Part shown: positions 20,333-64,000 of the stretch, piece by piece | Layout of the letters: each line of letters opens with the position of its first letter | Position numbering within the stretch: the first letter of the stretch is position 1 | Origin: Nemertoderma westbladi | Taxonomy: Eukaryota > Animalia > Xenacoelomorpha | Reading direction: 5' to 3' | Assembly (NCBI GenBank): GCA_032718475.1 | Contig: JAUCBJ010000472.1 | Location: 35,039-99,038 of the forward strand | DNA: 64,000 bases | The notes under the pieces: model-generated | Seen by the model: the letters and a program-made list of their open reading frames with translations, nothing else | What the model was told of the DNA's origin: nothing | The model's database searches: none | Program-made: the position numbers and the translations under genes

Positions 20333-20481
20333 AATGATGAATATGTTTGTTACGAATTCCCAACAAATCCCAACAAAACAGAATATATTATTGGGTTCGA
20401 CCCGGTCTTTAAACCACACCGAGTGCATCATATATTAGTTTGGGCTTGTAAACATCCTGCTAGAGCATATGGAGTTGTTTG
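20333..20481 (+). CDS. PHM: PHM-like exon 2 (CuH ligands HH)
   Basis: ttttttag|NDEYVCYEFPTNPNKTEYIIGFDPVFKPHRVHHILVWACKHPARAYGVV-TG|gttagt; aligns with PAM SDTYFC...FVIDFKP..TVHHMLLFGC. Absent from the supplied ORF track. Confidence 0.92.
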
Positions 20482-20890: not shown

Positions 20891-21166
20891 GCATTGCGGT
20901 GGCGATAGAACTGCGTCCCCTCGACCAATCCCCGACCGGACTGACTCGGCTTGTCGGGACTCCAGGAACCACACCTTTGTCTACGACTGGGCGATGGACG
21001 CCCAAGGTGGTGTTGTGTTCCCGAAAGATGTTGGATTAGCGATCGGCGGAGACACCGGGGTCGGTTCTATAATTATACAGGTCCATTATGCAGAGGTCGA
21101 TGAGTTCAGTATGAATCCGAGACTAACCGATGATTCCGGAGTGAAGCTGACTATAACCGATGAGGC
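20891..21166 (+). CDS. PHM: PHM-like exon 3
   Basis: (W)HCGG...VYDWAMDA..VVFPKDVGLAIGGDTGVGSIIIQVHY...DDSGVKL aligns with PAM LYAWARNA..LPKGVGFRVGGETGSKYFVLQVHY..DCSGV; phase 2/2. Confidence 0.93.
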
Positions 21167-21587
21167 GTTAGTTTTATTATCTGAGAGATTAACAACTGGA
21201 ATAAATGAGACACATTGAAATTAATTATCAAAAATAAATAAAAATAGTGAAAAGAAAGAACTAATATCGTTGATTATTGTGGATTTGTTTCAATAATTTG
21301 GGAGGAAAAGACTTTCTATTATTAATTTTGATTCTAGGAAGTCATTCTGTTACAGTTTTATTGATTTCAATATTTTTAATATTAAAGTTTTTTTATTTTT
21401 TTTTAATGTTAATTCTGATAATCTCATGATTTTTTTTATAATACTTGCCTGCACATATTATATTCTGATTTAGAGTTGGTTTATTTTAATGATTTGTATA
21501 GGTCTAAGTCATTCCAAAAATACCTCTCCCTGAATTTATCGGCCTTTTTTTTACTTTATAGTCCATATTATTCCTGTTTTGTTTCAG

Positions 21588-21652
21588 ACCCAAATATATC
21601 GCCAGCATTTACCTCATATTGGGTGGATCACAAGCGAATCCTCATTCAGTTG
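21588..21652 (+). CDS. PHM: PHM-like exon 4
   Basis: gtttcag|A-PKYIASIYLILGGSQANPHSV-G|gtgagt; aligns with PAM PLIAGMYL; phase 2/1. Confidence 0.88.
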
Positions 21653-21778: not shown

Positions 21779-21913
21779 GAGTGACAGAAATAGTTTGTAA
21801 ATGGCCTGACGACGGCCCAACTGTTTATCCTTTTCAGTACCACGTTCATTCTCATTCTACCGGAGTAGCGATCTCGGGGTACATCGTTAGAAATGGTATT
21901 TGGAATGAAATTG
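21779..21913 (+). CDS. PHM: PHM-like exon 5 (CuM HxH motif)
   Basis: VTEIVCKW...VYPFQYHVHSHSTGVAISGYIVRNGIWNEI aligns with PAM VFAYRVHTHHLGKVVSGYRVRNGQWTLI; phase 1/1. Confidence 0.93.
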
Positions 21914-22539: not shown

Positions 22540-22669
22540 GGAAGAAAAGCCCAAAATTGCCGCAAAGATTTTATCCGACCACAACTAAAGGACTTTCTAT
22601 TAGACCAGGAGATTACATCGCGGGGAGGTGTACCTACTACAACAACCGGAATGAACGAGTAGTAAATGG
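22540..22669 (+). CDS. PHM: PHM-like exon 6; gene continues beyond the window
   Basis: atttcag|GG-KKSPKLPQRFYPTTTKGLSIRPGDYIAGRCTYYNNRNERVVN-GG|gtaggt; aligns with PAM GRQNPQLPQAFYP...GDILAARCVFTGEGRTEATHIG. The EMCN (Met ligand) exon is not in the window. Confidence 0.92.
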
Positions 22670-25600
22670 GTAGGTGTACCAACTACACCAACCAGAATGA
22701 ACGAGTAGTGAATGGGTAGGTGTACCAACTACAACAACCGGAATGAACGAGTAGTGAATGGGTAGGTGTACCAACTACAATAACCGGAATGAACGAGTAG
22801 TGAATGGGTAGGTGTACCAACTACAATAACCGGAATAAACGAGTAGTGAATGGGTAGGTGTACCAACTACAATAACAACTGGAATAAACGAGTAGTAAAT
22901 GGGTAGGTGTACCAACTACAATAACAACTGGAATAAACGAGTAGTGAATGGGTAGGTGTACCAACTACAATAACAACTGGAATAAACGAGTAGTAAATGG
23001 GTAGGTGTACCAACTACAATAACAACTGGAATAAACGAGTAGTAAATGGGTAGGTGTACCAACTACAATAACAACTGGAATAAACGAGTAGTAAATGGGT
23101 AGGTGTACCAACTACAATAACAACTGGAATAAACGAGTAGTAAATGGGTAGGTGTACCAACTACAATAACAACTGGAATAAACGAGTAGTAAATGGGTAG
23201 GTGTACCAACTACAATAACAACTGGAATGGACGAGTAGTGAATGGGTAGGTGTACCAACTACAATAACAACTGGAATGAACGAGTAGTGAATGGGTAGGT
23301 GTACCAACTACAATAACAACTGGAATAAACGAGTAGTAAATGGGTAGGTGTACCAACTACAATAACAACTGGAATGGACGAGTAGTGAATGGGTAGGTGT
23401 ACCAACTACAATAACAACTGGAATAAACGAGTAGTAAATGGGTAGGTGTACCAACTACAATAACAACTGGAATGGACGAGTAGTGAATGGGTAGGTGTAC
23501 CAACTACAATAAAAACTGGAATGAACGAGTAGTGAATGGGTAGGTGTACCAACTACAATAACAACTGGAATAAACGAGTAGTGAATGGGTAGATCTACCA
23601 ACTACAATAACAACTGGAATAAACGAATAGTGAATGGGTAGGTGTACCAACTACAATAACAACTGGAATGGACGAGTAGTGAATGGGTAGGTGTACCAAC
23701 TACAATAACAACTGGAATAAACGAGTAGTGAATGGGTAGGTGTACCAACTACAATAACAACTGGAATAAACGAGTAGTGAATGGGTAGGTGTACCAACTA
23801 CAATAACAACTGGAATAAACTAGTAGTGAATGGGTAGGTGTACCAACTACAATAACAACTGGAATAAACGAGTAGTGAATGGGTAGGTGTACCAACTACA
23901 ATAACAACTGGAATAAACGAGTAGTGAATGGGTAGGTGTACCAACTACAATAACAACTGGAATAAACGAGTAGTGAATGGGTAGGTGTACCAACTACAAT
24001 AACAACTGGAATAAACGAGTAGTGAATGGGTAGGTGTACCAACTACAATAACAACTGGAATAAACGAGTAGTGAATGGGTAGGTGTACCAACTACAATAA
24101 CAACTGGAATAAACGAGTAGTGAATGGGTAGGTGTACCAACTACAATAACAACTGGAATAAACGAGTAGTGAATGGGTAGGTGTACCAACTACAATAACA
24201 ACTGGAATAAACGAGTAGTGAATGGGTAGGTGTACCAACTACAATAACAACTGGAATAAACGAGTAGTGAATGGGTAGGTGTACCAACTACAATAACAAC
24301 TGGAATAAACGAGTAGTGAATGGGTAGGTGTACCAACTACAATAACAACTGGAATAAACGAGTAGTGAATGGGTAGGTGTACCAACTACAATAACAACTG
24401 GAATAAACGAGTAGTGAATGGGTAGGTGTACCAACTACAATAACAACTGGAATAAACGAGTAGTGAATGGGTAGGTGTACCAACTACAATAACAACTGGA
24501 ATAAACGAGTAGTGAATGGGTAGGTGTACCAACTACAATAACAACTGGAATAAACGAGTAGTGAATGGGTAGGTGTACCAACTACAATAACAACTGGAAT
24601 AAACGAGTAGTGAATGGGTAGGTGTACCAACTACAATAACAACTGGAATAAACGAGTAGTGAATGGGTAGGTGTACCAACTACAATAACAACTGGAATAA
24701 ACGAGTAGTGAATGGGTAGGTGTACCAACTACAATAACAACTGGAATAAACGAGTAGTGAATGGGTAGGTGTACCAACTACAATAACAACTGGAATAAAC
24801 GAGTAGTGAATGGGTAGGTGTACCAACTACAATAACAACTGGAATAAACGAGTAGTGAATGGGTAGGTGTACCAACTACAATAACAACTGGAATAAACGA
24901 GTAGTGAATGGGTAGGTGTACCAACTACAATAACAACTGGAATAAACGAGTAGTGAATGGGTAGGTGTACCAACTACAATAACAACTGGAATAAACGAGT
25001 AGTGAATGGGTAGGTGTACCAACTACAATAACAACTGGAATAAACGAGTAGTGAATGGGTAGGTGTACCAACTACAATAACAACTGGAATAAACGAGTAG
25101 TGAATGGGTAGGTGTACCAACTACAATAACAACTGGAATAAACGAGTAGTGAATGGGTAGGTGTACCAACTACAATAACAACTGGAATAAACGAGTAGTG
25201 AATGGGTAGGTGTACCAACTACAATAACAACTGGAATAAACGAGTAGTGAATGGGTAGGTGTACCAACTACAATAACAACTGGAATAAACGAGTAGTGAA
25301 TGGGTAGGTGTACCAACTACAATAACAACTGGAATGAACGAGTAGTGAATGGGTAGGTGTACCAACTACAATAACAACTGGAATAAACGAGTAGTAAATG
25401 GGTAGGTGTACCAACTACAATAACAACTGGAATAAACGAGTAGTGAATGGGTAGGTGTACCAACTACAATAACAACTGGAATAAACGAGTAGTGAATGGG
25501 TAGGTGTACCAACTACAATAACAACTGGAATGAACGAGTAGTGAATGGGTAGATGTACCAACTACAATAACAACTGGAATAAACGAGTAGTGAATGGGTA

Positions 25601-28600
25601 GATCTACAGAATTACAATAACAAAGGGAATAAACGAGTAGTGAATGGGTAGGTGTACAGAATTACAATAACAAAGGGAATAAACGAGTAGTGAATGGGTA
25701 GGTGTACCAACTACAATAACAACTGGAATAAACGAGTAGTGAATGGGTAGGTGTACCAACTACAATAACAACTGGAATAAACGAGTAGTGAATGGGTAGG
25801 TGTACCAACTACAATAACAACTGGAATAAACGAGTAGTGAATGGGTAGGTGTACCAACTACAATAACAACTGGAATAAACGAGTAGTGAATGGGTAGATC
25901 TACAGAATTACAATAACAACTGGAATAAACGAGTAGTGAATGGGTAGGTGTACCAACTACAATAACAAAGGGAATAAACGAGTAGTGAATGGGTAGGTGT
26001 ACCAACTACAATAACAACTGGAATAAACGAGTAGTGAATGGGTAGGTGTACCAACTACAATAACAACTGGAATAAACGAGTAGTGAATGGGTAGGTGTAC
26101 CAACTACAATAACAACTGGAATAAACGAGTAGTGAATGGGTAGGTGTACCAACTACAATAACAACTGGAATGAACGAGTAGTGAATGGGTAGGTGTACCA
26201 ACTACAATAACAACTGGAATAAACGAGTAGTAAATGGGTAGGTGTACCAACTACAATAACAACTGGAATAAACGAGTAGTGAATGGGTAGGTGTACCAAC
26301 TACAATAACAACTGGAATAAACGAGTAGTGAATGGGTAGGTGTACCAACTACAATAACAACTGGAATAAACGAGTAGTGAATGGGTAGGTGTACCAACTA
26401 CAATAACAACTGGAATAAACGAGTAGTGAATGGGTAGGTGTACCAACTACAATAACAACTGGAATAAACGAGTAGTGAATGGGTAGGTGTACCAACTACA
26501 ATAACAACTGGAATGAACGAGTAGTGAATGGGTAGATGTACCAACTACAATAACAACTGGAATAAACGAGTAGTGAATGGGTAGATCTACAGAATTACAA
26601 TAACAAAGGGAATAAACGAGTAGTGAATGGGTAGGTGTACAGAATTACAATAACAAAGGGAATAAACGAGTAGTGAATGGGTAGGTGTACCAACTACAAT
26701 AACAAAGGGAATAAACGAGTAGTGAATGGGTAGGTGTACCAACTACAATAACAACTGGAATAAACGAGTAGTAAATGGGTAGGTGTACCAACTACAATAA
26801 CAACTGGAATAAACGAGTAGTGAATGGGTAGGTGTACCAACTACAATAACAACTGGAATAAACGAGTAGTAAATGGGTAGGTGTACCAACTACAATAACA
26901 ACTGGAATAAACGAGTAGTGAATGGGTAGGTGTACCAACTACAATAACAACTGGAATAAACGAGTAGTAAATGGGTAGGTGTACCAACTACAATAACAAC
27001 TGGAATAAACGAGTAGTGAATGGGTAGGTGTACCAACTACAATAACAACTGGAATAAACGAGTAGTGAATGGGTAGGTGTACCAACTACAATAACAACTG
27101 GAATAAACGAGTAGTGAATGGGTAGGTGTACCAACTACAATAACAACTGGAATAAACGAGTAGTGAATGGGTAGGTGTACCAACTACAATAACAACTGGA
27201 ATAAACGAGTAGTAAATGGGTAGATCTACAGAATTACAATAACAAAGGGAATAAACGAGTAGTGAATGGGTAGGTGTACCAACTACAATAACAACTGGAA
27301 TAAACGAGTAGTGAATGGGTAGGTGTACCACCTACAATAACAACTGGAATAAACGAGTAGTAAATGGGTAGGTGTACCAACTACAATAACAACTGGAATA
27401 AACGAGTAGTGAATGGGTAGGTGTACCAACTACAATAACAACTGGAATAAACGAGTAGTGAATGGGTAGGTGTACCAACTACAATAACAACTGGAATAAA
27501 CGAGTAGTAAATGGGTAGGTGTACCAACTACAATAACAACTGGAATAAACGAGTAGTGAATGGGTAGGTGTACCAACTACAATAACAACTGGAATAAACG
27601 AGTAGTAAATGGGTAGGTGTACCAACTACAATAACAACTGGAATAAACGAGTAGTGAATGGGTAGGTGTACCAACTACAATAACAACTGGAATAAACGAG
27701 TAGTAAATGGGTAGATCTACAGAATTACAATAACAAAGGGAATAAACGAGTAGTGAATGGGTAGGTGTACCAACTACAATAACAACTGGAATAAACGAGT
27801 AGTAAATGGGTAGGTGTACCAACTACAATAACAACTGGAATAAACGAGTAGTGAATGGGTAGGTGTACCAACTACAATAACAACTGGAATAAACGAGTAG
27901 TGAATGGGTAGGTGTACCAACTACAATAACAACTGGAATAAACGAGTAGTGAATGGGTAGGTGTACCAACTACAATAACAACTGGAATAAACGAGTAGTG
28001 AATGGGTAGGTGTACCAACTACAATAACAACTGGAATAAACGAGTAGTAAATGGGTAGATCTACAGAATTACAATAACAAAGGGAATAAACGAGTAGTGA
28101 ATGGGTAGGTGTACCAACTACAATAACAACTGGAATAAACGAGTAGTAAATGGGTAGGTGTACCAACTACAATAACAACTGGAATAAACGAGTAGTGAAT
28201 GGGTAGGTGTACCAACTACAATAACAACTGGAATAAACGAGTAGTGAATGGGTAGGTGTACCAACTACAATAACAACTGGAATGAACGAGTAGTGAATGG
28301 GTAGGTGTACCAACTACAATAACAACTGGAATAAACGAGTAATGAATGGGTAGATCTACAGAATTACAATAACAAAGGGAATAAACGAGTAGTGAATGGG
28401 TAGGTGTACCAACTACAATAACAACTGGAATGAACGAGTAGTGAATGGGTAGGTGTACCAACTACAATAACAACTGGAATAAACGAGTAGTAAATGGGTA
28501 GATCTACAGAATTACAATAACAACTGGAATAAACGAGTAGTGAATGGGTAGGTGTACCAACTACAATAACAACTGGAATAAACGAGTAGTGAATGGGTAG

Positions 28601-31600
28601 GTGTACCAACTACAATAACAACTGGAATAAACGAGTAGTGAATGGGTAGGTGTACCAACTACAATAACAACTGGAATAAACGAGTAGTAAATGGGTAGAT
28701 CTACAGAATTACAATAACAAAGGGAATAAACGAGTAGTGAATGGGTAGGTGTACCAACTACAATAACAACTGGAATAAACGAGTAGTGAATGGGTAGGTG
28801 TACAGAATTACAATAACAACTGGAATAAACGAGTAGTAAATGGGTAGATCTACAGAATTATAATAACAACTGGAATAAACGAGTAGTGAATGGGTAGGTG
28901 TACCAACTACAATAACAAAGGGAATAAACGAGTAGTGAATGGGTAGGTGTACCAACTACAATAACAAAGGGAATAAACGAGTAGTGAATGGGTAGGTGTA
29001 CCAACTACAATAACAACTGGAATAAACGAGTAGTGAATGGGTAGGTGTACCAACTACAATAACAACTGGAATAAACGAGTAGTGAATGGGTAGATGTACC
29101 AACTACAATAACAACTGGAATAAACGAGTAGTGAATGGGTAGGTGTACCAACTACAATAACAACTGGAATAAACGAGTAGTGAATGGGTAGGTGTACCAA
29201 CTACAATAACAACTGGAATAAACGAGTAGTGAATGGGTAGGTGTACCAACTACAATAACAACTGGAATAAACGAGTAGTGAATGGGTAGGTGTACCAACT
29301 ACAATAACAACTGGAATAAACGAGTAGTGAATGGGTAGGTGTACCAACTACAATAACAACTGGAATAAACGAGTAGTGAATGGGTAGGTGTACCAACTAC
29401 AATAACAACTGGAATAAACGAGTAGTGAATGGGTAGGTGTACCAACTACAATAACAACTGGAATAAACGAGTAGTAAATGGGTAGGTGTACCAACTACAA
29501 TAACAACTGGAATAAACGAGTAGTGAATGGGTAGGTGTACCAACTACAATAACAACTGGAATAAACGAGTAGTGAATGGGTAGATGTACCAACTACAATA
29601 ACAACTGGAATAAACGAGTAGTAAATGGGTAGGTGTACCAACTACAATAACAACTGGAATAAACGAGTAGTGAATGGGTAGGTGTACCAACTACAATAAC
29701 AACTGGAATAAACGAGTAGTGAATGGGTAGGTGTACCAACTACAATAACAACTGGAATAAACGAGTAGTGAATGGGTAGGTGTACCAACTACAATAACAA
29801 CTGGAATAAACGAGTAGTGAATGGGTAGGTGTACCAACTACAATAACAACTGGAATAAACGAGTAGTGAATGGGTAGGTGTACCAACTACAATAACAACT
29901 GGAATAAACGAGTAGTAAATGGGTAGGTGTACCAACTACAATAACAACTGGAATAAACGAGTAGTGAATGGGTAGGTGTACCAACTACAATAACAACTGG
30001 AATAAACGAGTAGTGAATGGGTAGGTGTACCAACTACAATAACAACTGGAATAAACGAGTAGTGAATGGGTAGATCTACAGAATTACAATAACAAAGGGA
30101 ATAAACGAGTAGTGAATGGGTAGGTGTACCAACTACAATAACAACTGGAATAAACGAGTAGTGAATGGGTAGGTGTACCAACTACAATAACAACTGGAAT
30201 AAACGAGTAGTGAATGGGTAGGTGTACCAACTACAATAACAACTGGAATAAACGAGTAGTGAATGGGTAGGTGTACCAACTACAATAACAACTGGAATAA
30301 ACGAGTAGTGAATGGGTAGGTGTACCAACTACAATAACAACTGGAATAAACGAGTAGTGAATGGGTAGGTGTACCAACTACAATAACAACTGGAATAAAC
30401 GAGTAGTGAATGGGTAGGTGTACCAACTACAATAACAACTGGAATAAACGAGTAGTGAATGGGTAGGTGTACCAACTACAATAACAACTGGAATAAACGA
30501 GTAGTGAATGGGTAGGTGTACCAACTACAATAACAACTGGAATAAACGAGTAGTGAATGGGTAGGTGTACCAACTACAATAACAACTGGAATAAACGAGT
30601 AGTGAATGGGTAGGTGTACCAACTACAATAACAACTGGAGTAAACGAGTAGTGAATGGGTAGGTGTACCAACTACAATAACAACTGGAATAAACGAGTAG
30701 TGAATGGGTAGGTGTACCAACTACAATAACAACTGGAATAAACGAGTAGTGAATGGGTAGGTGTACCAACTACAATAACAACTGGAATAAACGAGTAGTG
30801 AATGGGTAGGTGTACCAACTACAATAACAACTGGAATAAACGAGTAGTGAATGGGTAGGTGTACCAACTACAATAACAACTGGAATAAACGAGTAGTGAA
30901 TGGGTAGGTGTACCAAATACAATAACAACTGGAATGAACGAGTAGTGAATGGGTAGATGTTCAGAATTACAATAACAACTGGAATGAACGAGTAGTGAAT
31001 GGGTAGGTGTACCAACTACAATAACAACTGGAATAAACGAGTAGTAAATGGGTAGGTGTACCAACTACAATAACAACTGGAATAAACGAGTAGTGAATGG
31101 GTAGGTGTACCAACTACAATAACAACTGGAATAAACGAGTAGTGAATGGGTAGGTGTACCAACTACAATAACAACTGGAATAAACGAGTAGTGAATGGGT
31201 AGGTGTACCAACTACAATAACAACTGGAATAAACGAGTAGTGAATGGGTAGGTGTACCAACTACAATAACAACTGGAATAAACGAGTAGTGAATGGGTAG
31301 GTGTACCAACTACAATAACAACTGGAATAAACGAGTAGTGAATGGGTAGGTGTACCAACTACAATAACAACTGGAATAAACGAGTAGTGAATGGGTAGGT
31401 GTACCAAATACAATAACAACTGGAATAAACGAGTAGTGAATGGGTAGGTGTACCAACTACAATAACAACTGGAATAAACGAGTAGTGAATGGGTAGGTGT
31501 ACCAACTACAATAACAACTGGAATAAACGAGTAGTGAATGGGTAGGTGTACCAACTACAATAACAACTGGAATAAACGAGTAGTGAATGGGTAGGTGTAC

Positions 31601-34600
31601 CAACTACAATAACAACTGGAATAAACGAGTAGTGAATGGGTAGGTGTACCAACTACAATAACAACTGGAATAAACGAGTAGTGAATGGGTAGGTGTACCA
31701 ACTACAATAACAACTGGAATAAACGAGTAGTGAATGGGTAGGTGTACCAACTACAATAACAACTGGAATAAACGAGTAGTGAATGGGTAGGTGTACCAAC
31801 TACAATAACAACTGGAATAAACGAGTAGTGAATGGGTAGGTGTACCAACTACAATAACAACTGGAATAAACGAGTAGTGAATGGGTAGATGTTCAGAATT
31901 ACAATAACAACTGGAATGAACGAGTAGTGAATGGGTAGATGTTCAGAATTACAATAACAACTGGAATGAACGAGTAGTGAATGGGTGGGTGTACCAACTA
32001 CAATAACAACTGGAATAAACGAGTAGTAAATGGGTAGGTGTACCAACTACAATAACAACTGGAATAAACGAGTAGTGAATGGGTAGGTGTACCAACTACA
32101 ATAACAACTGGAATAAACGAGTAGTGAATGGGTAGGTGTACCAACTACAATAACAACTGGAATAAACGAGTAGTGAATGGGTAGGTGTACCAACTACAAT
32201 AACAACTGGAATAAACGAGTAGTGAATGGGTAGGTGTACCAAATACAATAACAACTGGAATGAACGAGTAGTGAATGGGTAGATGTTCAGAATTACAATA
32301 ACAACTGGAATGAACGAGTAGTGAATGGGTAGGTGTACCAACTACAATAACAACTGGAATGAACGAGTAGTGAATGGGTAGGTGTACCAACTACAATAAC
32401 AACTGGAATAAACGAGTAGTGAATGGGTAGGTGTACCAACTACAATAACAACTGGAATAAACGAGTAGTGAATGGGTAGGTGTACCAACTACAATAACAA
32501 CTGGAATGAACGAGTAGTGAATGGGTAGGTGTACCAACTACAATAACAACCGGAATAAACGAGTAGTGAATGGGTAGGTGTACCAACTACAATAACAACT
32601 GGAATAAACGAGTAGTGAATGGGTAGGTGTACCAACTACAATAACAACTGGAATAAACGAGTAGTGAATGGGTAGGTGTACCAACTACAATAACAACTGG
32701 AATAAACGAGTAGTGAATGGGTAGGTGTACCAACTACAATAACAACTGGAATAAACGAGTAGTGAATGGGTAGGTGTACCAACTACAATAACAACTGGAA
32801 TAAACGAGTAGTGAATGGGTAGGTGTACCAACTACAATAACAACTGGAATAAACGAGTAGTGAATGGGTAGGTGTACCAACTACAATAACAACTGGAATA
32901 AACGAGTAGTGAATGGGTAGGTGTACCAACTACAATAACAACTGGAATAAACGAGTAGTGAATGGGTAGGTGTACCAACTACAATAACAACTGGAATGAA
33001 CGAGTAGTGAATGGGTAGGTGTACCAACTACAATAACAACTGGAATAAACGAGTAGTGAATGGGTAGGTGTACCAACTACAATAACAACTGGAATAAACG
33101 AGTAGTGAATGGGTAGGTGTACCAACTACAATAACAACTGGAATAAACGAGTAGTGAATGGGTAGGTGTACCAACTACAATAACAACTGGAATAAACGAG
33201 TAGTGAATGGGTAGATGTTCAGAATTACAATAACAACTGGAATAAACGAGTAGTGAATGGGTAGGTGTACCAACTACAATAACAACTGGAATAAACGAGT
33301 AGTGAATGGGTAGGTGTACCAACTACAATAACAACTGGAATAAACGAGTAGTGAATGGGTAGGTGTACCAACTACAATAACAACTGGAATAAACGAGTAG
33401 TGAATGGGTAGGTGTACCAACTACAATAACAACTGGAATAAACGAGTAGTGAATGGGTAGGTGTACCAACTACAATAACAACTGGAATAAACGAGTAGTG
33501 AATGGGTAGGTGTACCAACTACAATAACAACTGGAATAAACGAGTAGTGAATGGGTAGGTGTACCAACTACAATAACAACTGGAATAAACGAGTAGTGAA
33601 TGGGTAGGTGTACCAACTACAATAACAACTGGAATAAACGAGTAGTGAATGGGTAGGTGTACCAACTACAATAACAACTGGAATGAACGAGTAGTGAATG
33701 GGTAGATGTTCAGAATTACAATAACAACTGGAATGGACGAGTAGTGAATGGGTAGATGTTCAGAATTACAATAACAACTGGAATAAACGAGTAGTGAATG
33801 GGTAGGTGTACCAACTACAATAACAACTGGAATAAACGAGTAGTGAATGGGTAGGTGTACCAACTACAATAACAACTGGAATAAACGAGTAGTGAATGGG
33901 TAGGTGTACCAACTACAATAACAACTGGAATAAACGAGTAGTGAATGGGTAGGTGTACCAACTACAATAACAACTGGAATAAACGAGTAGTGAATGGGTA
34001 GGTGTACCAACTACAATAACAACTGGAATAAACGAGTAGTGAATGGGTAGATGTTCAGAATTACAATAACAACTGGAATGAACGAGTAGTGAATGGGTAG
34101 ATGTTCAGAATTACAATAACAACTGGAATAAACGAGTAGTGAATGGGTAGGTGTACCAACTACAATAACAACTGGAATAAACGAGTAGTGAATGGGTAGA
34201 TGTTCAGAATTACAATAACAACTGGAATGAACGAGTAGTGAATGGGTAGATGTTCAGAATTACAATAACAACTGGAATAAACGAGTAGTGAATGGGTAGG
34301 TGTACCAACTACAATAACAACTGGAATAAACGAGTAGTGAATGGGTAGATGTTCAGAATTACAATAACAACTGGAATGAACGAGTAGTGAATGGGTAGAT
34401 GTTCAGAATTACAATAACAACTGGAATAAACGAGTAGTGAATGGGTAGGTGTACCAACTACAATAACAACTGGAATAAACGAGTAGTGAATGGGTAGGTG
34501 TACCAACTACAATAACAACTGGAATAAACGAGTAGTGAATGGGTAGATGTTCAGAATTACAATAACAACTGGAATGAACGAGTAGTGAATGGGTAGGTGT

Positions 34601-49600: not shown

Positions 49601-52600
49601 CCAACTACAATAACAACTGGAATAAACGAGTAGTGAATGGGTAGGTGTACCAACTACAATAACAACTGGAATAAACGAGTAGTGAATGGGTAGGTGTACC
49701 AACTACAATAACAACTGGAATAAACGAGTAGTGAATGGGTAGGTGTACCAACTACAATAACAACTGGAATAAACGAGTAGTGAATGGGTAGGTGTACCAA
49801 CTACAATAACAACTGGAATAAACGAGTAGTGAATGGGTAGATGTTCAGAATTACAATAACAACTGGAATGAACGAGTAGTGAATGGGTAGGTGTACCAAC
49901 TACAATAACAACTGGAATAAACGAGTAGTGAATGGGTAGGTGTACCAACTACAATAACAACTGGAATAAACGAGTAGTGAATGGGTAGGTGTACCAACTA
50001 CAATAACAACTGGAATAAACGAGTAGTGAATGGGTAGATGTTCAGAATTACAATAACAACTGGAATGAACGAGTAGTGAATGGGTAGGTGTACCAACTAC
50101 AATAACAACTGGAATAAACGAGTAGTGAATGGGTAGGTGTACCAACTACAATAACAACTGGAATAAACGAGTAGTGAATGGGTAGGTGTTCCAACTACAA
50201 TAACAACTGGAATAAACGAGTAGTGAATGGGTAGGTGTTCCAACTACAATAACAACTGGAATAAACGAGTAGTGAATGGGTAGGTGTTCCAACTACAATA
50301 ACAACTGGAATAAACGAGTAGTGAATGGGTAGATGTTCAGAATTACAATAACAACTGGAATGAACGAGTAGTGAATGGGTAGGTGTACCAACTACAATAA
50401 CAACTGGAATAAACGAGTAGTGAATGGGTAGGTGTTCCAACTACAATAACAACTGGAATAAACGAGTAGTGAATGGGTAGGTGTTCCAACTACAATAACA
50501 ACTGGAATAAACGAGTAGTGAATGGGTAGGTGTTCCAACTACAATAACAACTGGAATAAACGAGTAGTGAATGGGTAGGTGTACAGAATTACAATAACAA
50601 CTGGAATAAACGAGTAGTGAATGGGTAGGTGTACCAACTACAATAACAACTGGAATAAACGAGTAGTGAATGGGTAGGTGTACCAACTACAATAACAACT
50701 GGAATAAACGAGTAGTGAATGGGTAGATGTTCAGAATTACAATAACAACTGGAATGAACGAGTAGTGAATGGGTAGGTGTACCAACTACAATAACAACTG
50801 GAATAAACGAGTAGTGAATGGGTAGGTGTACCAACTACAATAACAACTGGAATAAACGAGTAGTGAATGGGTAGGTGTTCCAACTACAATAACAACTGGA
50901 ATAAACGAGTAGTGAATGGGTAGGTGTTCCAACTACAATAACAACTGGAATAAACGAGTAGTGAATGGGTAGGTGTTCCAACTACAATAACAACTGGAAT
51001 AAACGAGTAGTGAATGGGTAGATGTTCAGAATTACAATAACAACTGGAATGAACGAGTAGTGAATGGGTAGGTGTACCAACTACAATAACAACTGGAATA
51101 AACGAGTAGTGAATGGGTAGGTGTACCAACTACAATAACAACTGGAATAAACGAGTAGTGAATGGGTAGGTGTACCAACTACAATAACAACTGGAATAAA
51201 CGAGTAGTGAATGGGTAGATGTTCAGAATTACAATAACAACTGGAATGAACGAGTAGTGAATGGGTAGGTGTTCCAACTACAATAACAACTGGAATAAAC
51301 GAGTAGTGAATGGGTAGGTGTACCAACTACAATAACAACTGGAATGAACGAGTAGTGAATGGGTAGGTGTACCAACTACAATAACAACTGGAATGAACGA
51401 GTAGTGAATGGGTAGGTGTACCAACTACAATAACAACTGGAATGAACGAGTAGTGAATGGGTAGGTGTACCAACTACAATAACAACTGGAATAAACGAGT
51501 AGTGAATGGGTAGATGTTCAGAATTACAATAACAACTGGAATGAACGAGTAGTGAATGGGTAGGTGTACCAACTACAATAACAACTGGAATAAACGAGTA
51601 GTGAATGGGTAGATGTTCAGAATTACAATAACAACTGGAATGAACGAGTAGTGAATGGGTAGGTGTACCAACTACAATAACAACTGGAATAAACGAGTAG
51701 TGAATGGGTAGGTGTACCAACTACAATAACAACTGGAATAAACGAGTAGTGAATGGGTAGGTGTACCAACTACAATAACAACTGGAATGAACGAGTAGTG
51801 AATGGGTAGATGTTCAGAATTACAATAACAACTGGAATGGACGAGTAGTGAATGGGTAGGTGTACCAACTACAATAACAACTGGAATGAACGAGTAGTGA
51901 ATGGGTAGATGTTCAGAATTACAATAACAACTGGAATGAACGAGTAGTGAATGGGTAGGTGTACCAACTACAATAACAACTGGAATAAACGAGTAGTGAA
52001 TGGGTAGGTGTACCAACTACAATAACAACTGGAATGAACGAGTAGTGAATGGGTAGGTGTACCAACTACAATAACAACTGGAATGGACGAGTAGTGAATG
52101 GGTAGATGTTCAGAATTACAATAACAACTGGAATGAACGAGTAGTGAATGGGTAGGTGTACCAACTACAATAACAACTGGAATAAACGAGTAGTGAATGG
52201 GTAGGTGTACCAACTACAATAACAACTGGAATAAACGAGTAGTGAATGGGTAGGTGTACCAACTACAATAACAACTGGAATAAACGAGTAGTGAATGGGT
52301 AGGTGTACCAACTACAATAACAACTGGAATGAACGAGTAGTGAATGGGTAGATGTTCAGAATTACAATAACAACTGGAATGGACGAGTAGTGAATGGGTA
52401 GGTGTACCAACTACAATAACAACTGGAATAAACGAGTAGTGAATGGGTAGGTGTACCAACTACAATAACAACTGGAATAAACGAGTAGTGAATGGGTAGG
52501 TGTACCAACTACAATAACAACTGGAATAAACGAGTAGTGAATGGGTAGGTGTACCAACTACAATAACAACTGGAATAAACGAGTAGTGAATGGGTAGGTG

Positions 52601-55600
52601 TACCAACTACAATAACAACTGGAATGAACGAGTAGTGAATGGGTAGATGTTCAGAATTACAATAACAACTGGAATGAACGAGTAGTGAATGGGTAGGTGT
52701 ACCAACTACAATAACAACTGGAATGAACGAGTAGTGAATGGGTAGATGTTCAGAATTACAATAACAACTGGAATGGACGAGTAGTGAATGGGTAGGTGTA
52801 CCAACTACAATAACAACTGGAATAAACGAGTAGTGAATGGGTAGGTGTACCAACTACAATAACAACTGGAATGAACGAGTAGTGAATGGGTAGATGTTCA
52901 GAATTACAATAACAACTGGAATGGACGAGTAGTGAATGGGTAGGTGTACCAACTACAATAACAACTGGAATAAACGAGTAGTGAATGGGTAGGTGTACCA
53001 ACTACAATAACAACTGGAATGAACGAGTAGTGAATGGGTAGATGTTCAGAATTACAATAACAACTGGAATGAACGAGTAGTGAATGGGTAGGTGTACCAA
53101 CTACAATAACAACTGGAATAAACGAGTAGTGAATGGGTAGGTGTACCAACTACAATAACAACTGGAATAAACGAGTAGTGAATGGGTAGGTGTACCAACT
53201 ACAATAACAACTGGAATAAACGAGTAGTGAATGGGTAGGTGTACCAACTACAATAACAACTGGAATAAACGAGTAGTGAATGGGTAGGTGTACCAACTAC
53301 AATAACAACTGGAATAAACGAGTAGTGAATGGGTAGGTGTACCAACTACAATAACAACTGGAATAAACGAGTAGTGAATGGGTAGGTGTACCAACTACAA
53401 TAACAACTGGAATGAACGAGTAGTGAATGGGTAGATGTTCAGAATTACAATAACAACTGGAATGGACGAGTAGTGAATGGGTAGGTGTACCAACTACAAT
53501 AACAACTGGAATGAACGAGTAGTGAATGGGTAGATGTTCAGAATTACAATAACAACTGGAATGAACGAGTAGTGAATGGGTAGGTGTACCAACTACAATA
53601 ACAACTGGAATAAACGAGTAGTGAATGGGTAGGTGTACCAACTACAATAACAACTGGAATGAACGAGTAGTGAATGGGTAGGTGTACCAACTACAATAAC
53701 AACTGGAATGAACGAGTAGTGAATGGGTAGATGTTCAGAATTACAATAACAACTGGAATGAACGAGTAGTGAATGGGTAGGTGTACCAACTACAATAACA
53801 ACTGGAATAAACGAGTAGTGAATGGGTAGGTGTACCAACTACAATAACAACTGGAATAAACGAGTAGTGAATGGGTAGGTGTACCAACTACAATAACAAC
53901 TGGAATGAACGAGTAGTGAATGGGTAGGTGTACCAACTACAATAACAACTGGAATAAACGAGTAGTGAATGGGTAGATGTTCAGAATTACAATAACAACT
54001 GGAATGGACGAGTAGTGAATGGGTAGATGTTCAGAATTACAATAACAACTGGAATGAACGAGTAGTGAATGGGTAGGTGTACCAACTACAATAACAACTG
54101 GAATAAACGAGTAGTGAATGGGTAGGTGTACCAACTACAATAACAACTGGAATAAACGAGTAGTGAATGGGTAGGTGTACCAACTACAATAACAACTGGA
54201 ATAAACGAGTAGTGAATGGGTAGGTGTACCAACTACAATAACAACTGGAATAAACGAGTAGTGAATGGGTAGGTGTACCAACTACAATAACAACTGGAAT
54301 AAACGAGTAGTGAATGGGTAGATGTTCAGAATTACAATAACAACTGGAATGAACGAGTAGTGAATGGGTAGGTGTACCAACTACAATAACAACTGGAATA
54401 AACGAGTAGTGAATGGGTAGGTGTACCAACTACAATAACAACTGGAATAAACGAGTAGTGAATGGGTAGGTGTACCAACTACAATAACAACTGGAATAAA
54501 CGAGTAGTGAATGGGTAGATGTTCAGAATTACAATAACAACTGGAATGAACGAGTAGTGAATGGGTAGGTGTACCAACTACAATAACAACTGGAATAAAC
54601 GAGTAGTGAATGGGTAGGTGTACCAACTACAATAACAACTGGAATAAACGAGTAGTGAATGGGTAGGTGTACCAACTACAATAACAACTGGAATAAACGA
54701 GTAGTGAATGGGTAGATGTTCAGAATTACAATAACAACTGGAATGAACGAGTAGTGAATGGGTAGATGTTCAGAATTACAATAACAACTGGAATGAACGA
54801 GTAGTGAATGGGTAGGTGTACCAACTACAATAACAACTGGAATAAACGAGTAGTGAATGGGTAGGTGTACCAACTACAATAACAACTGGAATGAACGAGT
54901 AGTGAATGGGTAGATGTTCAGAATTACAATAACAACTGGAATAAACGAGTAGTGAATGGGTAGGTGTACCAACTACAATAACAACTGGAATAAACGAGTA
55001 GTGAATGGGTAGGTGTACCAACTACAATAACAACTGGAATGAACGAGTAGTGAATGGGTAGGTGTACCAACTACAATAACAACTGGAATAAACGAGTAGT
55101 GAATGGGTAGGTGTACCAACTACAATAACAACTGGAATAAACGAGTAGTGAATGGGTAGGTGTACCAACTACAATAACAACTGGAATGAACGAGTAGTGA
55201 ATGGGTAGGTGTACCAACTACAATAACAACTGGAATGAACGAGTAGTGAATGGGTAGGTGTACCAACTACAATAACAACTGGAATGAACGAGTAGTGAAT
55301 GGGTAGGTGTACCAACTACAATAACAACTGGAATAAACGAGTAGTGAATGGGTAGGTGTACCAACTACAATAACAACTGGAATGAACGAGTAGTGAATGG
55401 GTAGATGTTCAGAATTACAATAACAACTGGAATGAACGAGTAGTGAATGGGTAGATGTTCAGAATTACAATAACAACTGGAATGAACGAGTAGTGAATGG
55501 GTAGGTGTACCAACTACAATAACAACTGGAATAAACGAGTAGTGAATGGGTAGGTGTACCAACTACAATAACAACTGGAATGAACGAGTAGTGAATGGGT

Positions 55601-58600
55601 AGGTGTACCAACTACAATAACAACTGGAATAAACGAGTAGTGAATGGGTAGGTGTACCAACTACAATAACAACTGGAATAAACGAGTAGTGAATGGGTAG
55701 ATGTTCAGAATTACAATAACAACTGGAATGAACGAGTAGTGAATGGGTAGGTGTACCAACTACAATAACAACTGGAATAAACGAGTAGTGAATGGGTAGG
55801 TGTACCAACTACAATAACAACTGGAATGAACGAGTAGTGAATGGGTAGGTGTACCAACTACAATAACAACTGGAATAAACGAGTAGTGAATGGGTAGGTG
55901 TACCAACTACAATAACAACTGGAATAAACGAGTAGTGAATGGGTAGGTGTACCAACTACAATAACAACTGGAATAAACGAGTAGTGAATGGGTAGGTGTA
56001 CCAACTACAATAACAACTGGAATAAACGAGTAGTGAATGGGTAGGTGTACCAACTACAATAACAACTGGAATAAACGAGTAGTGAATGGGTAGGTGTACC
56101 AACTACAATAACAACTGGAATGAACGAGTAGTGAATGGGTAGATGTTCAGAATTACAATAACAACTGGAATGAACGAGTAGTGAATGGGTAGGTGTACCA
56201 ACTACAATAACAACTGGAATAAACGAGTAGTGAATGGGTAGGTGTACCAACTACAATAACAACTGGAATAAACGAGTAGTGAATGGGTAGGTGTACCAAC
56301 TACAATAACAACTGGAATGAACGAGTAGTGAATGGGTAGGTGTACCAACTACAATAACAACTGGAATAAACGAGTAGTGAATGGGTAGATGTTCAGAATT
56401 ACAATAACAACTGGAATGGACGAGTAGTGAATGGGTAGATGTTCAGAATTACAATAACAACTGGAATGAACGAGTAGTGAATGGGTAGGTGTACCAACTA
56501 CAATAACAACTGGAATAAACGAGTAGTGAATGGGTAGGTGTACCAACTACAATAACAACTGGAATAAACGAGTAGTGAATGGGTAGGTGTACCAACTACA
56601 ATAACAACTGGAATAAACGAGTAGTGAATGGGTAGGTGTACCAACTACAATAACAACTGGAATAAACGAGTAGTGAATGGGTAGGTGTACCAACTACAAT
56701 AACAACTGGAATAAACGAGTAGTGAATGGGTAGATGTTCAGAATTACAATAACAACTGGAATGAACGAGTAGTGAATGGGTAGGTGTACCAACTACAATA
56801 ACAACTGGAATAAACGAGTAGTGAATGGGTAGGTGTACCAACTACAATAACAACTGGAATAAACGAGTAGTGAATGGGTAGGTGTACCAACTACAATAAC
56901 AACTGGAATAAACGAGTAGTGAATGGGTAGATGTTCAGAATTACAATAACAACTGGAATGAACGAGTAGTGAATGGGTAGGTGTACCAACTACAATAACA
57001 ACTGGAATAAACGAGTAGTGAATGGGTAGGTGTACCAACTACAATAACAACTGGAATAAACGAGTAGTGAATGGGTAGGTGTACCAACTACAATAACAAC
57101 TGGAATAAACGAGTAGTGAATGGGTAGATGTTCAGAATTACAATAACAACTGGAATGGACGAGTAGTGAATGGGTAGATGTTCAGAATTACAATAACAAC
57201 TGGAATAAACGAGTAGTGAATGGGTAGGTGTACCAACTACAATAACAACTGGAATAAACGAGTAGTGAATGGGTAGGTGTACCAACTACAATAACAACTG
57301 GAATGAACGAGTAGTGAATGGGTAGATGTTCAGAATTACAATAACAACTGGAATGAACGAGTAGTGAATGGGTAGGTGTACCAACTACAATAACAACTGG
57401 AATAAACGAGTAGTGAATGGGTAGGTGTACCAACTACAATAACAACTGGAATGAACGAGTAGTGAATGGGTAGGTGTACCAACTACAATAACAACTGGAA
57501 TGAACGAGTAGTGAATGGGTAGGTGTACCAACTACAATAACAACTGGAATAAACGAGTAGTGAATGGGTAGGTGTACCAACTACAATAACAACTGGAATG
57601 AACGAGTAGTGAATGGGTAGATGTTCAGAATTACAATAACAACTGGAATAAACGAGTAGTGAATGGGTAGGTGTACCAACTACAATAACAACTGGAATAA
57701 ACGAGTAGTGAATGGGTAGGTGTACCAACTACAATAACAACTGGAATGAACGAGTAGTGAATGGGTAGGTGTACCAACTACAATAACAACTGGAATGAAC
57801 GAGTAGTGAATGGGTAGGTGTACCAACTACAATAACAACTGGAATAAACGAGTAGTGAATGGGTAGGTGTACCAACTACAATAACAACTGGAATGAACGA
57901 GTAGTGAATGGGTAGATGTTCAGAATTACAATAACAACTGGAATAAACGAGTAGTGAATGGGTAGGTGTACCAACTACAATAACAACTGGAATGAACGAG
58001 TAGTGAATGGGTAGGTGTACCAACTACAATAACAACTGGAATAAACGAGTAGTGAATGGGTAGGTGTACCAACTACAATAACAACTGGAATAAACGAGTA
58101 GTGAATGGGTAGGTGTACCAACTACAATAACAACTGGAATAAACGAGTAGTGAATGGGTAGGTGTACCAACTACAATAACAACTGGAATGAACGAGTAGT
58201 GAATGGGTAGGTGTACCAACTACAATAACAACTGGAATGAACGAGTAGTGAATGGGTAGGTGTACCAACTACAATAACAACTGGAATAAACGAGTAGTGA
58301 ATGGGTAGGTGTACCAACTACAATAACAACTGGAATGAACGAGTAGTGAATGGGTAGGTGTACCAACTACAATAACAACTGGAATAAACGAGTAGTGAAT
58401 GGGTAGGTGTACCAACTACAATAACAACTGGAATGAACGAGTAGTGAATGGGTAGGTGTACCAACTACAATAACAACTGGAATAAACGAGTAGTGAATGG
58501 GTAGGTGTACCAACTACAATAACAACTGGAATAAACGAGTAGTGAATGGGTAGGTGTACCAACTACAATAACAACTGGAATAAACGAGTAGTGAATGGGT

Positions 58601-61600
58601 AGGTGTACCAACTACAATAACAACTGGAATGAACGAGTAGTGAATGGGTAGATGTTCAGAATTACAATAACAACTGGAATAAACGAGTAGTGAATGGGTA
58701 GGTGTACCAACTACAATAACAACTGGAATAAACGAGTAGTGAATGGGTAGGTGTACCAACTACAATAACAACTGGAATAAACGAGTAGTGAATGGGTAGG
58801 TGTACCAACTACAATAACAACTGGAATAAACGAGTAGTGAATGGGTAGGTGTACCAACTACAATAACAACTGGAATAAACGAGTAGTGAATGGGTAGGTG
58901 TACCAACTACAATAACAACTGGAATAAACGAGTAGTGAATGGGTAGGTGTACCAACTACAATAACAACTGGAATAAACGAGTAGTGAATGGGTAGGTGTA
59001 CCAACTACAATAACAACTGGAATAAACGAGTAGTGAATGGGTAGGTGTACCAACTACAATAACAACTGGAATAAACGAGTAGTGAATGGGTAGGTGTACC
59101 AACTACAATAACAACTGGAATAAACGAGTAGTGAATGGGTAGGTGTACCAACTACAATAACAACTGGAATAAACGAGTAGTGAATGGGTAGGTGTACCAA
59201 CTACAATAACAACTGGAATAAACGAGTAGTGAATGGGTAGGTGTACCAACTACAATAACAACTGGAATGAACGAGTAGTGAATGGGTAGGTGTACCAACT
59301 ACAATAACAACTGGAATAAACGAGTAGTGAATGGGTAGGTGTACCAACTACAATAACAACTGGAATAAACGAGTAGTGAATGGGTAGGTGTACCAACTAC
59401 AATAACAACTGGAATAAACGAGTAGTGAATGGGTAGATGTTCAGAATTACAATAACAACTGGAATAAACGAGTAGTGAATGGGTAGGTGTACCAACTACA
59501 ATAACAACTGGAATAAACGAGTAGTGAATGGGTAGGTGTACCAACTACAATAACAACTGGAATAAACGAGTAGTGAATGGGTAGGTGTACCAACTACAAT
59601 AACAACTGGAATAAACGAGTAGTGAATGGGTAGGTGTACCAACTACAATAACAACTGGAATGAACGAGTAGTGAATGGGTAGGTGTACCAACTACAATAA
59701 CAACTGGAATAAACGAGTAGTGAATGGGTAGGTGTACCAACTACAATAACAACTGGAATAAACGAGTAGTGAATGGGTAGGTGTACCAACTACAATAACA
59801 ACTGGAATAAACGAGTAGTGAATGGGTAGGTGTTCAGAATTACAATAACAACTGGAATAAACGAGTAGTGAATGGGTAGGTGTACCAACTACAATAACAA
59901 CTGGAATAAACGAGTAGTGAATGGGTAGGTGTACCAACTACAATAACAACTGGAATAAACGAGTAGTGAATGGGTAGGTGTACCAACTACAATAACAACT
60001 GGAATAAACGAGTAGTGAATGGGTAGGTGTACCAACTACAATAACAACTGGAATAAACGAGTAGTGAATGGGTAGGTGTACCAACTACAATAACAACTGG
60101 AATAAACGAGTAGTGAATGGGTAGGTGTACCAACTACAATAACAACTGGAATAAACGAGTAGTGAATGGGTAGGTGTACCAACTACAATAACAACTGGAA
60201 TAAACGAGTAGTGAATGGGTAGGTGTACAGAACTACAATAACAACTGGAATAAACGAGTAGTGAATGGGTAGGTGTACCAACTACAATAACAACTGGAAT
60301 AAACGAGTAGTGAATGGGTAGGTGTACCAACTACAATAACAACTGGAATAAACGAGTAGTGAATGGGTAGGTGTACCAACTACAATAACAACTGGAATAA
60401 ACGAGTAGTGAATGGGTAGGTGTACCAACTACAATAACAACTGGAATAAACGAGTAGTGAATGGGTAGGTGTACCAACTACAATAACAACTGGAATAAAC
60501 GAGTAGTGAATGGGTAGGTGTTCCAACTACAATAACAACTGGAATAAACGAGTAGTGAATGGGTAGGTGTACCAACTACAATAACAACTGGAATAAACGA
60601 GTAGTGAATGGGTAGGTGTACCAACTACAATAACAACTGGAATAAACGAGTAGTGAATGGGTAGGTGTACCAACTACAATAACAACTGGAATAAACGAGT
60701 AGTGAATGGGTAGGTGTACCAACTACAATAACAACTGGAATAAACGAGTAGTGAATGGGTAGGTGTACCAACTACAATAACAACTGGAATAAACGAGTAG
60801 TGAATGGGTAGGTGTACCAACTACAATAACAACTGGAATAAACGAGTAGTGAATGGGTAGGTGTACCAACTACAATAACAACTGGAATAAACGAGTAGTG
60901 AATGGGTAGGTGTACCAACTACAATAACAACTGGAATAAACGAGTAGTGAATGGGTAGGTGTACCAACTACAATAACAACTGGAATAAACGAGTAGTGAA
61001 TGGGTAGGTGTACCAACTACAATAACAACTGGAATAAACGAGTAGTGAATGGGTAGGTGTACCAACTACAATAACAACTGGAATAAACGAGTAGTGAATG
61101 GGTAGGTGTACCAACTACAATAACAACTGGAATAAACGAGTAGTGAATGGGTAGGTGTACCAACTACAATAACAACTGGAATAAACGAGTAGTGAATGGG
61201 TAGGTGTACCAACTACAATAACAACTGGAATAAACGAGTAGTGAATGGGTAGGTGTACCAACTACAATAACAACTGGAATAAACGAGTAGTGAATGGGTA
61301 GGTGTACCAACTACAATAACAACTGGAATAAACGAGTAGTGAATGGGTAGGTGTACCAACTACAATAACAACTGGAATAAACGAGTAGTGAATGGGTAGG
61401 TGTACCAACTACAATAACAACTGGAATAAACGAGTAGTGAATGGGTAGGTGTACCAACTACAATAACAACTGGAATAAACGAGTAGTGAATGGGTAGGTG
61501 TACCAACTACAATAACAACTGGAATAAACGAGTAGTGAATGGGTAGGTGTACCAACTACAATAACAACTGGAATAAACGAGTAGTGAATGGGTAGGTGTA

Positions 61601-64000
61601 CCAACTACAATAACAACTGGAATAAACGAGTAGTGAATGGGTAGGTGTACCAACTACAATAACAACTGGAATAAACGAGTAGTGAATGGGTAGGTGTACC
61701 AACTACAATAACAACTGGAATAAACGAGTAGTGAATGGGTAGGTGTACCAACTACAATAACAACTGGAATAAACGAGTAGTGAATGGGTAGGTGTACCAA
61801 CTACAATAACAACTGGAATAAACGAGTAGTGAATGGGTAGGTGTACCAACTACAATAACAACTGGAATAAACGAGTAGTGAATGGGTAGGTGTACCAACT
61901 ACAATAACAACTGGAATAAACGAGTAGTGAATGGGTAGGTGTACCAACTACAATAACAACTGGAATAAACGAGTAGTGAATGGGTAGGTGTACCAACTAC
62001 AATAACAACTGGAATAAACGAGTAGTGAATGGGTAGGTGTACCAACTACAATAACAACTGGAATAAACGAGTAGTGAATGGGTAGGTGTACCAACTACAA
62101 TAACAACTGGAATAAACGAGTAGTGAATGGGTAGGTGTACCAACTACAATAACAACTGGAATAAACGAGTAGTGAATGGGTAGGTGTACCAACTACAATA
62201 ACAACTGGAATAAACGAGTAGTGAATGGGTAGGTGTACCAACTACAATAACAACTGGAATAAACGAGTAGTGAATGGGTAGGTGTACCAACTACAATAAC
62301 AACTGGAATAAACGAGTAGTGAATGGGTAGGTGTACCAACTACAATAACAACTGGAATAAACGAGTAGTGAATGGGTAGGTGTACCAACTACAATAACAA
62401 CTGGAATAAACGAGTAGTGAATGGGTAGGTGTACCAACTACAATAACAACTGGAATAAACGAGTAGTGAATGGGTAGGTGTACCAACTACAATAACAACT
62501 GGAATAAACGAGTAGTGAATGGGTAGGTGTACCAACTACAATAACAACTGGAATAAACGAGTAGTGAATGGGTAGGTGTACCAACTACAATAACAACTGG
62601 AATAAACGAGTAGTGAATGGGTAGGTGTACCAACTACAATAACAACTGGAATAAACGAGTAGTGAATGGGTAGGTGTACCAACTACAATAACAACTGGAA
62701 TAAACGAGTAGTGAATGGGTAGGTGTACCAACTACAATAACAACTGGAATAAACGAGTAGTGAATGGGTAGGTGTACCAACTACAATAACAACTGGAATA
62801 AACGAGTAGTGAATGGGTAGGTGTACCAACTACAATAACAACTGGAATAAACGAGTAGTGAATGGGTAGGTGTACCAACTACAATAACAACTGGAATAAA
62901 CGAGTAGTGAATGGGTAGGTGTACCAACTACAATAACAACTGGAATAAACGAGTAGTGAATGGGTAGGTGTACCAACTACAATAACAACTGGAATAAACG
63001 AGTAGTGAATGGGTAGGTGTACCAACTACAATAACAACTGGAATAAACGAGTAGTGAATGGGTAGGTGTACCAACTACAATAACAACTGGAATAAACGAG
63101 TAGTGAATGGGTAGGTGTACCAACTACAATAACAACTGGAATAAACGAGTAGTGAATGGGTAGGTGTACCAACTACAATAACAACTGGAATAAACGAGTA
63201 GTGAATGGGTAGGTGTACCAACTACAATAACAACTGGAATAAACGAGTAGTGAATGGGTAGGTGTACCAACTACAATAACAACTGGAATAAACGAGTAGT
63301 GAATGGGTAGGTGTACCAACTACAATAACAACTGGAATAAACGAGTAGTGAATGGGTAGGTGTACCAACTACAATAACAACTGGAATAAACGAGTAGTGA
63401 ATGGGTAGGTGTACCAACTACAATAACAACTGGAATAAACGAGTAGTGAATGGGTAGGTGTACCAACTACAATAACAACTGGAATAAACGAGTAGTGAAT
63501 GGGTAGGTGTACCAACTACAATAACAACTGGAATAAACGAGTAGTGAATGGGTAGGTGTACCAACTACAATAACAACTGGAATAAACGAGTAGTGAATGG
63601 GTAGGTGTACCAACTACAATAACAACTGGAATAAACGAGTAGTGAATGGGTAGGTGTACCAACTACAATAACAACTGGAATGAACGAGTAGTGAATGGGT
63701 AGGTGTACCAACTACAATAACAACTGGAATAAACGAGTAGTGAATGGGTAGGTGTACCAACTACAATAACAACTGGAATAAACGAGTAGTGAATGGGTAG
63801 GTGTACCAACTACAATAACAACTGGAATAAACGAGTAGTGAATGGGTAGATGTACCAACTACAATAACAACTGGAATAAACGAGTAGTGAATGGGTAGGT
63901 GTACCAACTACAATAACAACTGGAATGGACGAGTAGTGAATGGGTAGGTGTACCAACTACAATAACAACTGGAATAAACGAGTAGTGATTGGGTAGGTGT
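22626..64000 (+). repeat. 49-bp satellite array (AGGTGTACCAACTACAATAACAACTGGAATAAACGAGTAGTGAATGGGT), ~840 units, >41 kb, runs off the window
   Basis: Continuous, uninterrupted head-to-tail units. The first five are 46 bp; interspersed 50-bp variants occur. Confidence 0.99.

Follow-up and report, generated by a model that had tools for sequence, protein, structure and literature searches.

A coding exon end and its presumed 5' splice site amplified to a tandem array of more than 41 kb in a putative PHM gene of Nemertoderma westbladi

How could a gene remain functional when one of its introns appears to consist of hundreds of copies of its own 5' splice site, and how did such a structure arise? 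This question was raised by a 64-kb stretch of DNA from Nemertoderma westbladi (contig JAUCBJ010000472.1, positions 35,039 to 99,038; termed the window in the following, all coordinates being those of the window), in which a putative PHM gene runs directly into a tandem array. The array is made up of tandem copies of the 3' end of PHM exon 6, namely its last 44 coding bases, together with the donor GT. With moderate confidence we favour the view that it is tolerated in a likely pre-existing intron, and that splicing of the gene likely continues, joining the first donor to a downstream exon outside the window.

The gene model comprises six predicted exons:

18200 to 18304, plus strand: PHM exon 1, placed by frame and similarity; it begins with ATG and a hydrophobic, signal-peptide-like stretch and ends at a phase-0 donor GTAAGT.
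20333 to 20481, plus strand: PHM exon 2, which encodes the copper-H ligands HH; match to PF01082 (E 1.4e-06).
20891 to 21166, plus strand: PHM exon 3, with QVHY, the third copper-H ligand; match to PF01082 (E 1.4e-08).
21588 to 21652, plus strand: PHM exon 4, a candidate placed by AG and GT sites and frame, with a continuous BLASTP alignment.
21779 to 21913, plus strand: PHM exon 5, with the HxH copper-M ligands and a His at the position of Arg240; match to PF03712 (E 4.1e-05); aligned to rat PHM residues 234-261.
22540 to 22669, plus strand: PHM exon 6, whose last two bases are the first two of a conserved Gly codon; match to PF03712 (E 2.3e-04).

Joined together, the six exons form an open frame of 860 nt, with GT after each exon and AG before exons 2-6. 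Exon 1 was aligned with the N-termini of animal PHMs in a BLASTP search with the whole model; alone it was without a PHM match in Pfam. A full HMMER scan with exon 3 yielded 67 matches, mostly PHM-like, and word-based searches for proteins, with exons 3 and 5 as queries, gave no matches. Exons 5 and 6 could be aligned to rat PHM structures. Both Pfam domains, the five His ligands and the RC cysteine are common to rat PHM and the window gene, which differs in having a His at Arg240 and in that the Met314 segment is outside the window. All five ligands occupy conserved columns, H67, H68, H150, H222 and H224 of the model corresponding to His107, His108 and His172 of the copper-H site (CuH) and to His242 and His244 of the copper-M site (CuM). 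The model was 36-40% identical to the nearest of 184 fetched proteins, which included PHMs of a crinoid, an urchin and a mollusc; no close relative, and no protein of the species itself, was present among these 184.

Exon 6 ends with RCTYYNNRNERVVN-GG/GT (the slash denoting the presumed splice junction), and reading through this junction gives Gly and then a stop codon, TAG, at 22671-22673. The last Gly of the exon is located 13 residues past the RC cysteine. In homologs, this cysteine precedes DEMC by 18 residues (131 of 144 motifs), and a Gly is found five residues before the Asp of DEMC (143 of 144 motifs). From the spacing of 18 between Cys and Asp it follows that the last codon of the exon falls on the conserved Gly, and from the spacing between Gly and DEMC that the Met314 ligand should lie just past the junction. 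The DEMC segment, which carries this CuM ligand, is absent from the window, as had been claimed in the original prediction; its position would fall beyond the window end.

Tandem Repeats Finder reported one array from 22622 to 64000 with a period of 49, 842.2 copies and 96% matches. The orientation is head-to-tail, and the array is open at the window end; thus, its length of more than 41 kb and its 842 copies are minimum values. It is composed of the following parts:

22622 to 22629, plus strand: exonic microhomology GGGGAGGT, which agrees in 7 of 8 bases with GGGTAGGT, found 46 bp further on at the exon end (self-alignment with period 46).
22626 to 22671, plus strand: founder unit, the last 44 coding bases and the donor GT.
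22670 to 22675, plus strand: first 5' splice site GTAGGT, presumed to be the authentic one; when unspliced, it leads into the in-frame TAG.
22670 to 22853, plus strand: four transitional units of 46 bp, with 3-5 edits from the exon template.
22854 to 64000, plus strand: main array of 49- and 50-bp units, each ending in a donor copy, AATAAA in most; open at the window end.

The 842 TGG/GT junctions consist of 718 TGG/GTAGGT, 123 TGG/GTAGAT and a single TGG/GTGGGT. Complete units number 841, of which 712 have 49 bp, 124 have 50 bp, four have 46 bp and one has 51 bp; they fall into 39 types, with one type accounting for 516 units. GTAGAT is the start of 116 of the 124 50-mers. These counts are in agreement with the prediction of about 840 donors in more than 41 kb, most of them in the context AATGG/GTAGGT, and of 50-bp variants carrying mostly GTAGAT. 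Coding by the array was ruled out, the longest open stretches being 28 codons on the plus strand and 114 on the minus strand. A scan of positions 1-26000 with Rfam gave no match. Among metagenome and viral contigs, none matched the repeat unit exactly, which says little about copies elsewhere in the genome.

That the exon gave rise to the array, and not the array to the exon end, can be read from a conserved residue together with a gradient of divergence. The residue two positions after the cysteine is M, Y, F or I in all 143 homolog motifs; the founder unit, which encodes conserved PHM core, has Y there, a residue missing at this position from all 39 downstream unit types. The edit distance to the exon template is 5, 3, 4 and 5 in the first four units and 7-8 in most later ones. 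Since the founder keeps the conserved residue and the units proximal to the exon are nearest to the template, the exon is the source. The six-exon model and the self-alignment with period 46 likewise uphold the claim that the first unit equals the last 44 nt of exon 6 plus GT.

Periodicity is seen already from 22622, because of the microhomology. This match of 7 in 8 bases points to slippage at GGG.AGGT, by which the array probably began: a nascent strand ending in GGGT(AGGT) would have mis-annealed 46 bp back at GGGGAGGT, and the resulting pair would then have grown by unequal exchange, gained 3 bp and become homogenised in local blocks. Units of one type tend to lie in the same region, local higher-order patterns occur and singletons are few, all of which fits unequal exchange. 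Only the GT of the donor (+1, +2) must derive from an intron; since AGT is found at +4 to +6 in each of the five remaining donors of the gene, the AGGT at +3 to +6 may be a copy of exon sequence here.

A hairpin which masks the first donor or drives the duplication was also considered and is unsupported by fold statistics. A 12-bp RNA stem over the first donor had a z value of -1.9, with 8 of 200 shuffles equally good; for a 361-nt RNA fold z was -0.1, and for DNA folds 0.1 and -0.6. The predicted accessibility of the donor varied with the chosen folding window.

Upstream of the array, the window contains only a 16-bp match to the repeat unit. It is located at 21190-21205 in PHM intron 3 and is exact with respect to the majority 49-mer, at a place where the unit departs from the exon. 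When the upstream DNA was resampled 500 times with a Markov model, a match of 16 bases was reached once; the match could be a patch of templated conversion or due to chance.

The distribution of unit types is also relevant to the suspicion that a real but shorter array was inflated during assembly. Such inflation would be in keeping with 63 identical units in one run from about 60560 and with a pattern of 21 units which is present at both 53678 and 56090. We hold it to be very unlikely, since the 39 types, with their regional clusters, local patterns and few singletons, look as unequal exchange and accurate long reads would make them. The final three complete units (about 63800-64000) are rare types, and two of these are otherwise found mainly near where the array begins; its far edge may therefore be close to the window end.

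Which of the donors would be used, if the gene is transcribed? The first donor GTAGGT matches the U1 consensus at 6 Watson-Crick positions, compared with 5-7 for the remaining five donors of the gene. Any later donor includes the in-frame TAG in the message and thus only the first can yield full-length enzyme; the prediction that later donors are unproductive stands. It appears likely from this analysis that the cell uses only the first donor. Exon definition and scanning in the 5'-to-3' direction, as inferred from mammalian work, would commit the spliceosome to the most upstream donor and leave the later copies mostly silent; the rare choice of a later donor would give an mRNA containing the stop, and the array itself would most likely be neutral, tolerated DNA. 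Recursive splicing or poison micro-exons were rejected as candidates: GTTCAG is present in 104 of the 50-mers, yet there is no pyrimidine tract.

The architecture has been described before, on a small scale. Minisatellites whose first monomer spans an exon-intron boundary are reported for F7 intron 7 (a 37-bp variable number tandem repeat), IFI6 (6-16), CBS intron 13, LMNB2 and PDGF, with 5-9 units in F7, 25 pseudo-sites in IFI6, 15-20 copies in CBS, 10-15 in LMNB2 and 16-18 in PDGF; in the account given there, the first donor alone is used in F7, LMNB2 and PDGF (PMC1557585). As in human F7, the first monomer of the window array would lie across an exon-intron boundary, here a putative one, with the donor repeated into the intron, and the F7 donor, UGG/gugggu, is near to TGG/GTAGGT. 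Arrays of the F7 type have 5-26 copies, whereas the window array has at least 842, and the F7 unit has 4 exonic bases, as against 44. The "mirages" of amphioxus (Adh3 and the globins BflGb6 and BflGb9) are closer in other respects, being tandem copies of exon-intron boundaries with a sizeable exonic part, in an invertebrate, with edge units less homogenised; splicing is seemingly not disturbed by them, and a gain of introns has been proposed. The BflGb6 mirage has 3-6 units, the window array in contrast being of satellite scale (PMC3087553). The architecture is that of a described class, then, and the window array is an extreme case of it; the new feature is size. An incomplete search of the literature, by titles and the beginnings of abstracts, found no array of this kind at this size. 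The satellites in the giant introns of the Drosophila genes kl-3 and kl-5 are simple ones and are not known to be copies of an exon end of the gene. There, too, transcription and splicing across a very long tandem array would be needed, the introns reaching up to megabases, unlike the window array (PMC6508621, PMC11207136). The original prediction was right about the repeat, its origin in the exon and the TAG; it missed the described class, in which, as reported, the first donor usually wins (PMC1557585, PMC3087553), as well as the His at Arg240 and the AATAAA in 80% of the units.

Several points weigh against a gene which is still spliced from its first donor across an older intron. The rule of the first donor would have to be extrapolated to 842 donors from at most about 26 in the published arrays compared, and for IFI6 and CBS use of the two closest extra donors is reported as well (PMC1557585). 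The Arg which is replaced by His in exon 5, according to the alignment with rat PHM, is kept in 132 of 132 full-length homologs. Highly conserved columns are kept by the model in 41 of 51 cases, and only one of the 132 homologs keeps fewer. In a quick tree of 38 rows the branch of the model was the longest (4.04, the median being 0.75), its placement being unsupported. AATAAA occurs in 671 of 841 units and is first encountered at 22834, within the fourth unit of 46 bp. Finally, an intron at the conserved Gly was found in none of eight intron-containing PHM loci, all of which are without introns 2-5 of the window gene as well; these eight were chosen from 80, with two near-duplicates left out, and the search favours intron-poor hits.

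The last of these points bears on the question of whether an intron was there first. Without a prior intron, a 46-bp duplication inside a longer exon would have made a donor-like junction, and the array would then have broken the gene or become an intron by the Rogers route, from AG/GT at 22627/22628 to the AG/GT of the last unit. AG/GT is indeed present inside every GTAGGT unit; Ser is the next residue after Gly in 46 of 144 homolog motifs, so that GGG TCN is possible; and a gain of introns from mirages has been proposed (PMC3087553), which would suit this scenario, as would the lack of a Gly intron in the eight genomic loci. In locus L058, the Arg codon of ARC is interrupted at about 3850-4300 by a phase-2 intron of 450 bp, at the same AG/GT where the window repeat unit begins. 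We nevertheless consider a start without an intron improbable. In a survey of the best 80 of 350 PHM loci, mostly transcripts and with some near-duplicates, GT followed GG at only 4 of 84 contiguous Gly junctions in PHM coding sequence, which makes the GT found here far likelier to be the start of an intron. The alternative donor, GAG/GTGTAC, matches U1 at only 4 Watson-Crick positions, no pyrimidine run in the array is longer than 4, and the conserved hydrophobic residue is kept by the founder and not by later units. Two other sequences break at the Gly: homolog P0018 stops exactly there, as would be expected from a retained phase-2 intron, and transcript locus L007 contains (at about 1065-1293) a second, diverged copy of the DEMC segment which starts inside the conserved Gly codon and is possibly a duplicated alternative last exon. 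These breaks hint at a phase-2 boundary at the Gly in other animals. Published exon boundaries of PAM or PHM genes were not found in the literature searched, including one supplementary file of PMC10303134. Human PAM may have an intron at this Gly, to which no weight is given here. Taken together, the sequence comparisons indirectly suggest that a pre-existing intron at the conserved Gly is likely.

The changes in the protein and the AATAAA raise a different doubt, namely that the gene is a PHM paralog which is dead, dying or truncated, with read-through to TAG and cleavage at an AATAAA of the array, or with no expression at all, so that the array grew free of splicing constraint. Arg240 forms a salt bridge to the PHM substrate, and copper-ligand variants, M314H included, are reported with at most about 5% activity (PMC12164859). 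The His in place of Arg240 could reflect a change of substrate or a loss of function, both of which appear possible from the sequence, and the ten altered columns and the very long branch would be expected from decay. The first AATAAA is situated only about 160 bases past the stop, and with the signal in most units a transcript could end inside the array. On the other side, the six exons still form an open frame of 860 nt, their splice sites are canonical and none of the five His ligands is lost; a long branch may also characterise a whole lineage, the nearest proteins found being only 36-40% identical; and AATAAA stems from one G-to-A change relative to the exon, which was later amplified. 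In the majority unit it is located 29 bases past one donor and 14 before the next, and since U1 suppresses proximal intronic poly(A) signals, as described in PMC5499120, U1 bound to many donor copies would tend to mask the signals between them. A dead or dying gene, the main alternative, appears rather unlikely on balance, and more so than a gene spliced from its first donor.

Alternation of donors and poly(A) signals also invites a functional interpretation, for which, in this analysis, the nearest model is the chicken LL2R RNA. This tandem-repeat RNA is rich in predicted donors, which exceed acceptor sites as in the window array, and it concentrates spliceosomal small nuclear RNAs and splicing factors (bioRxiv 10.64898/2026.03.19.712899). 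LL2R is non-coding and depleted of poly(A) signals, with transcription and condensates demonstrated, and the splicing of F7 has been measured; the window array, in contrast, belongs to a coding gene, is rich in AATAAA and is known from DNA alone. It is conceivable, if doubtful in the extreme, that the array was selected as a regulatory device, in which U1 sites and interleaved poly(A) signals set the ratio of full-length to truncated product, or which nucleates a splicing-factor condensate. The density would be ample, with about 40 donor copies per 2 kb compared to just over 5 predicted per 2 kb in LL2R RNA (bioRxiv 10.64898/2026.03.19.712899), and the position of AATAAA between donors in the majority unit would be suitable. 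Throughout the array the GT never varies, but the 712 49-mers are equally constant at 31 of 49 positions; selection on the donor copies was therefore rejected. Moreover, the G at +5 was lost in 123 donors, and repeats appear to arise readily in this DNA (see below). A more specific version, with a live gene whose transcription crosses more than 41 kb of U1 sites alternating with poly(A) signals, is improbable in our opinion; there, U1 protection versus cleavage would act as a switch, yielding either full-length enzyme or a secreted form without the CuM methionine, and the nascent RNA would gather U1 snRNP into a locus-specific body.

Returning to the favoured reading of a tolerated array in a spliced gene, the locus would be a natural stress test of the rule of the most upstream donor, its copy number being some 30 times that of the largest array in the papers compared, and the ability of U1 to mask interleaved poly(A) signals by the hundred would be tested, too. 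In a dead gene, the array would be only a large neutral repeat. Regardless of function, the graded units are a stepwise record of how a satellite arose from a coding exon.

Five other tandem arrays, from 85 bp to 2.7 kb in length, are present in the 22 kb upstream. This DNA thus appears to make repeats readily, which favours a neutral origin. Three of the five and one further feature are:

5694 to 7058: tandem array with a 57-bp unit.
11512 to 14171: tandem array with a unit of about 28 bp.
20112 to 20303: tandem array with a 48-bp unit, in PHM intron 1 just ahead of exon 2.
2984 to 4459, minus strand: DDE_1 transposase domain in an open frame of 491 codons (E 1.1e-22).

The remaining two arrays are associated with other putative exons, for which (7318-7803 and 8343-8512) no convincing match was found in Pfam or Atlas. 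At 7428-7803 on the plus strand, GTAAGT is repeated 15 times in units of 24-25 bp, directly after a putative exon of 121 nt (from 7318), so that the window has another minisatellite of donor copies. This exon joins in frame to a putative last exon (8343-8512, plus strand) with a hydrophobic stretch, and a 17-bp repeat at 8501-8585 copies the stop codon of that last exon, too.

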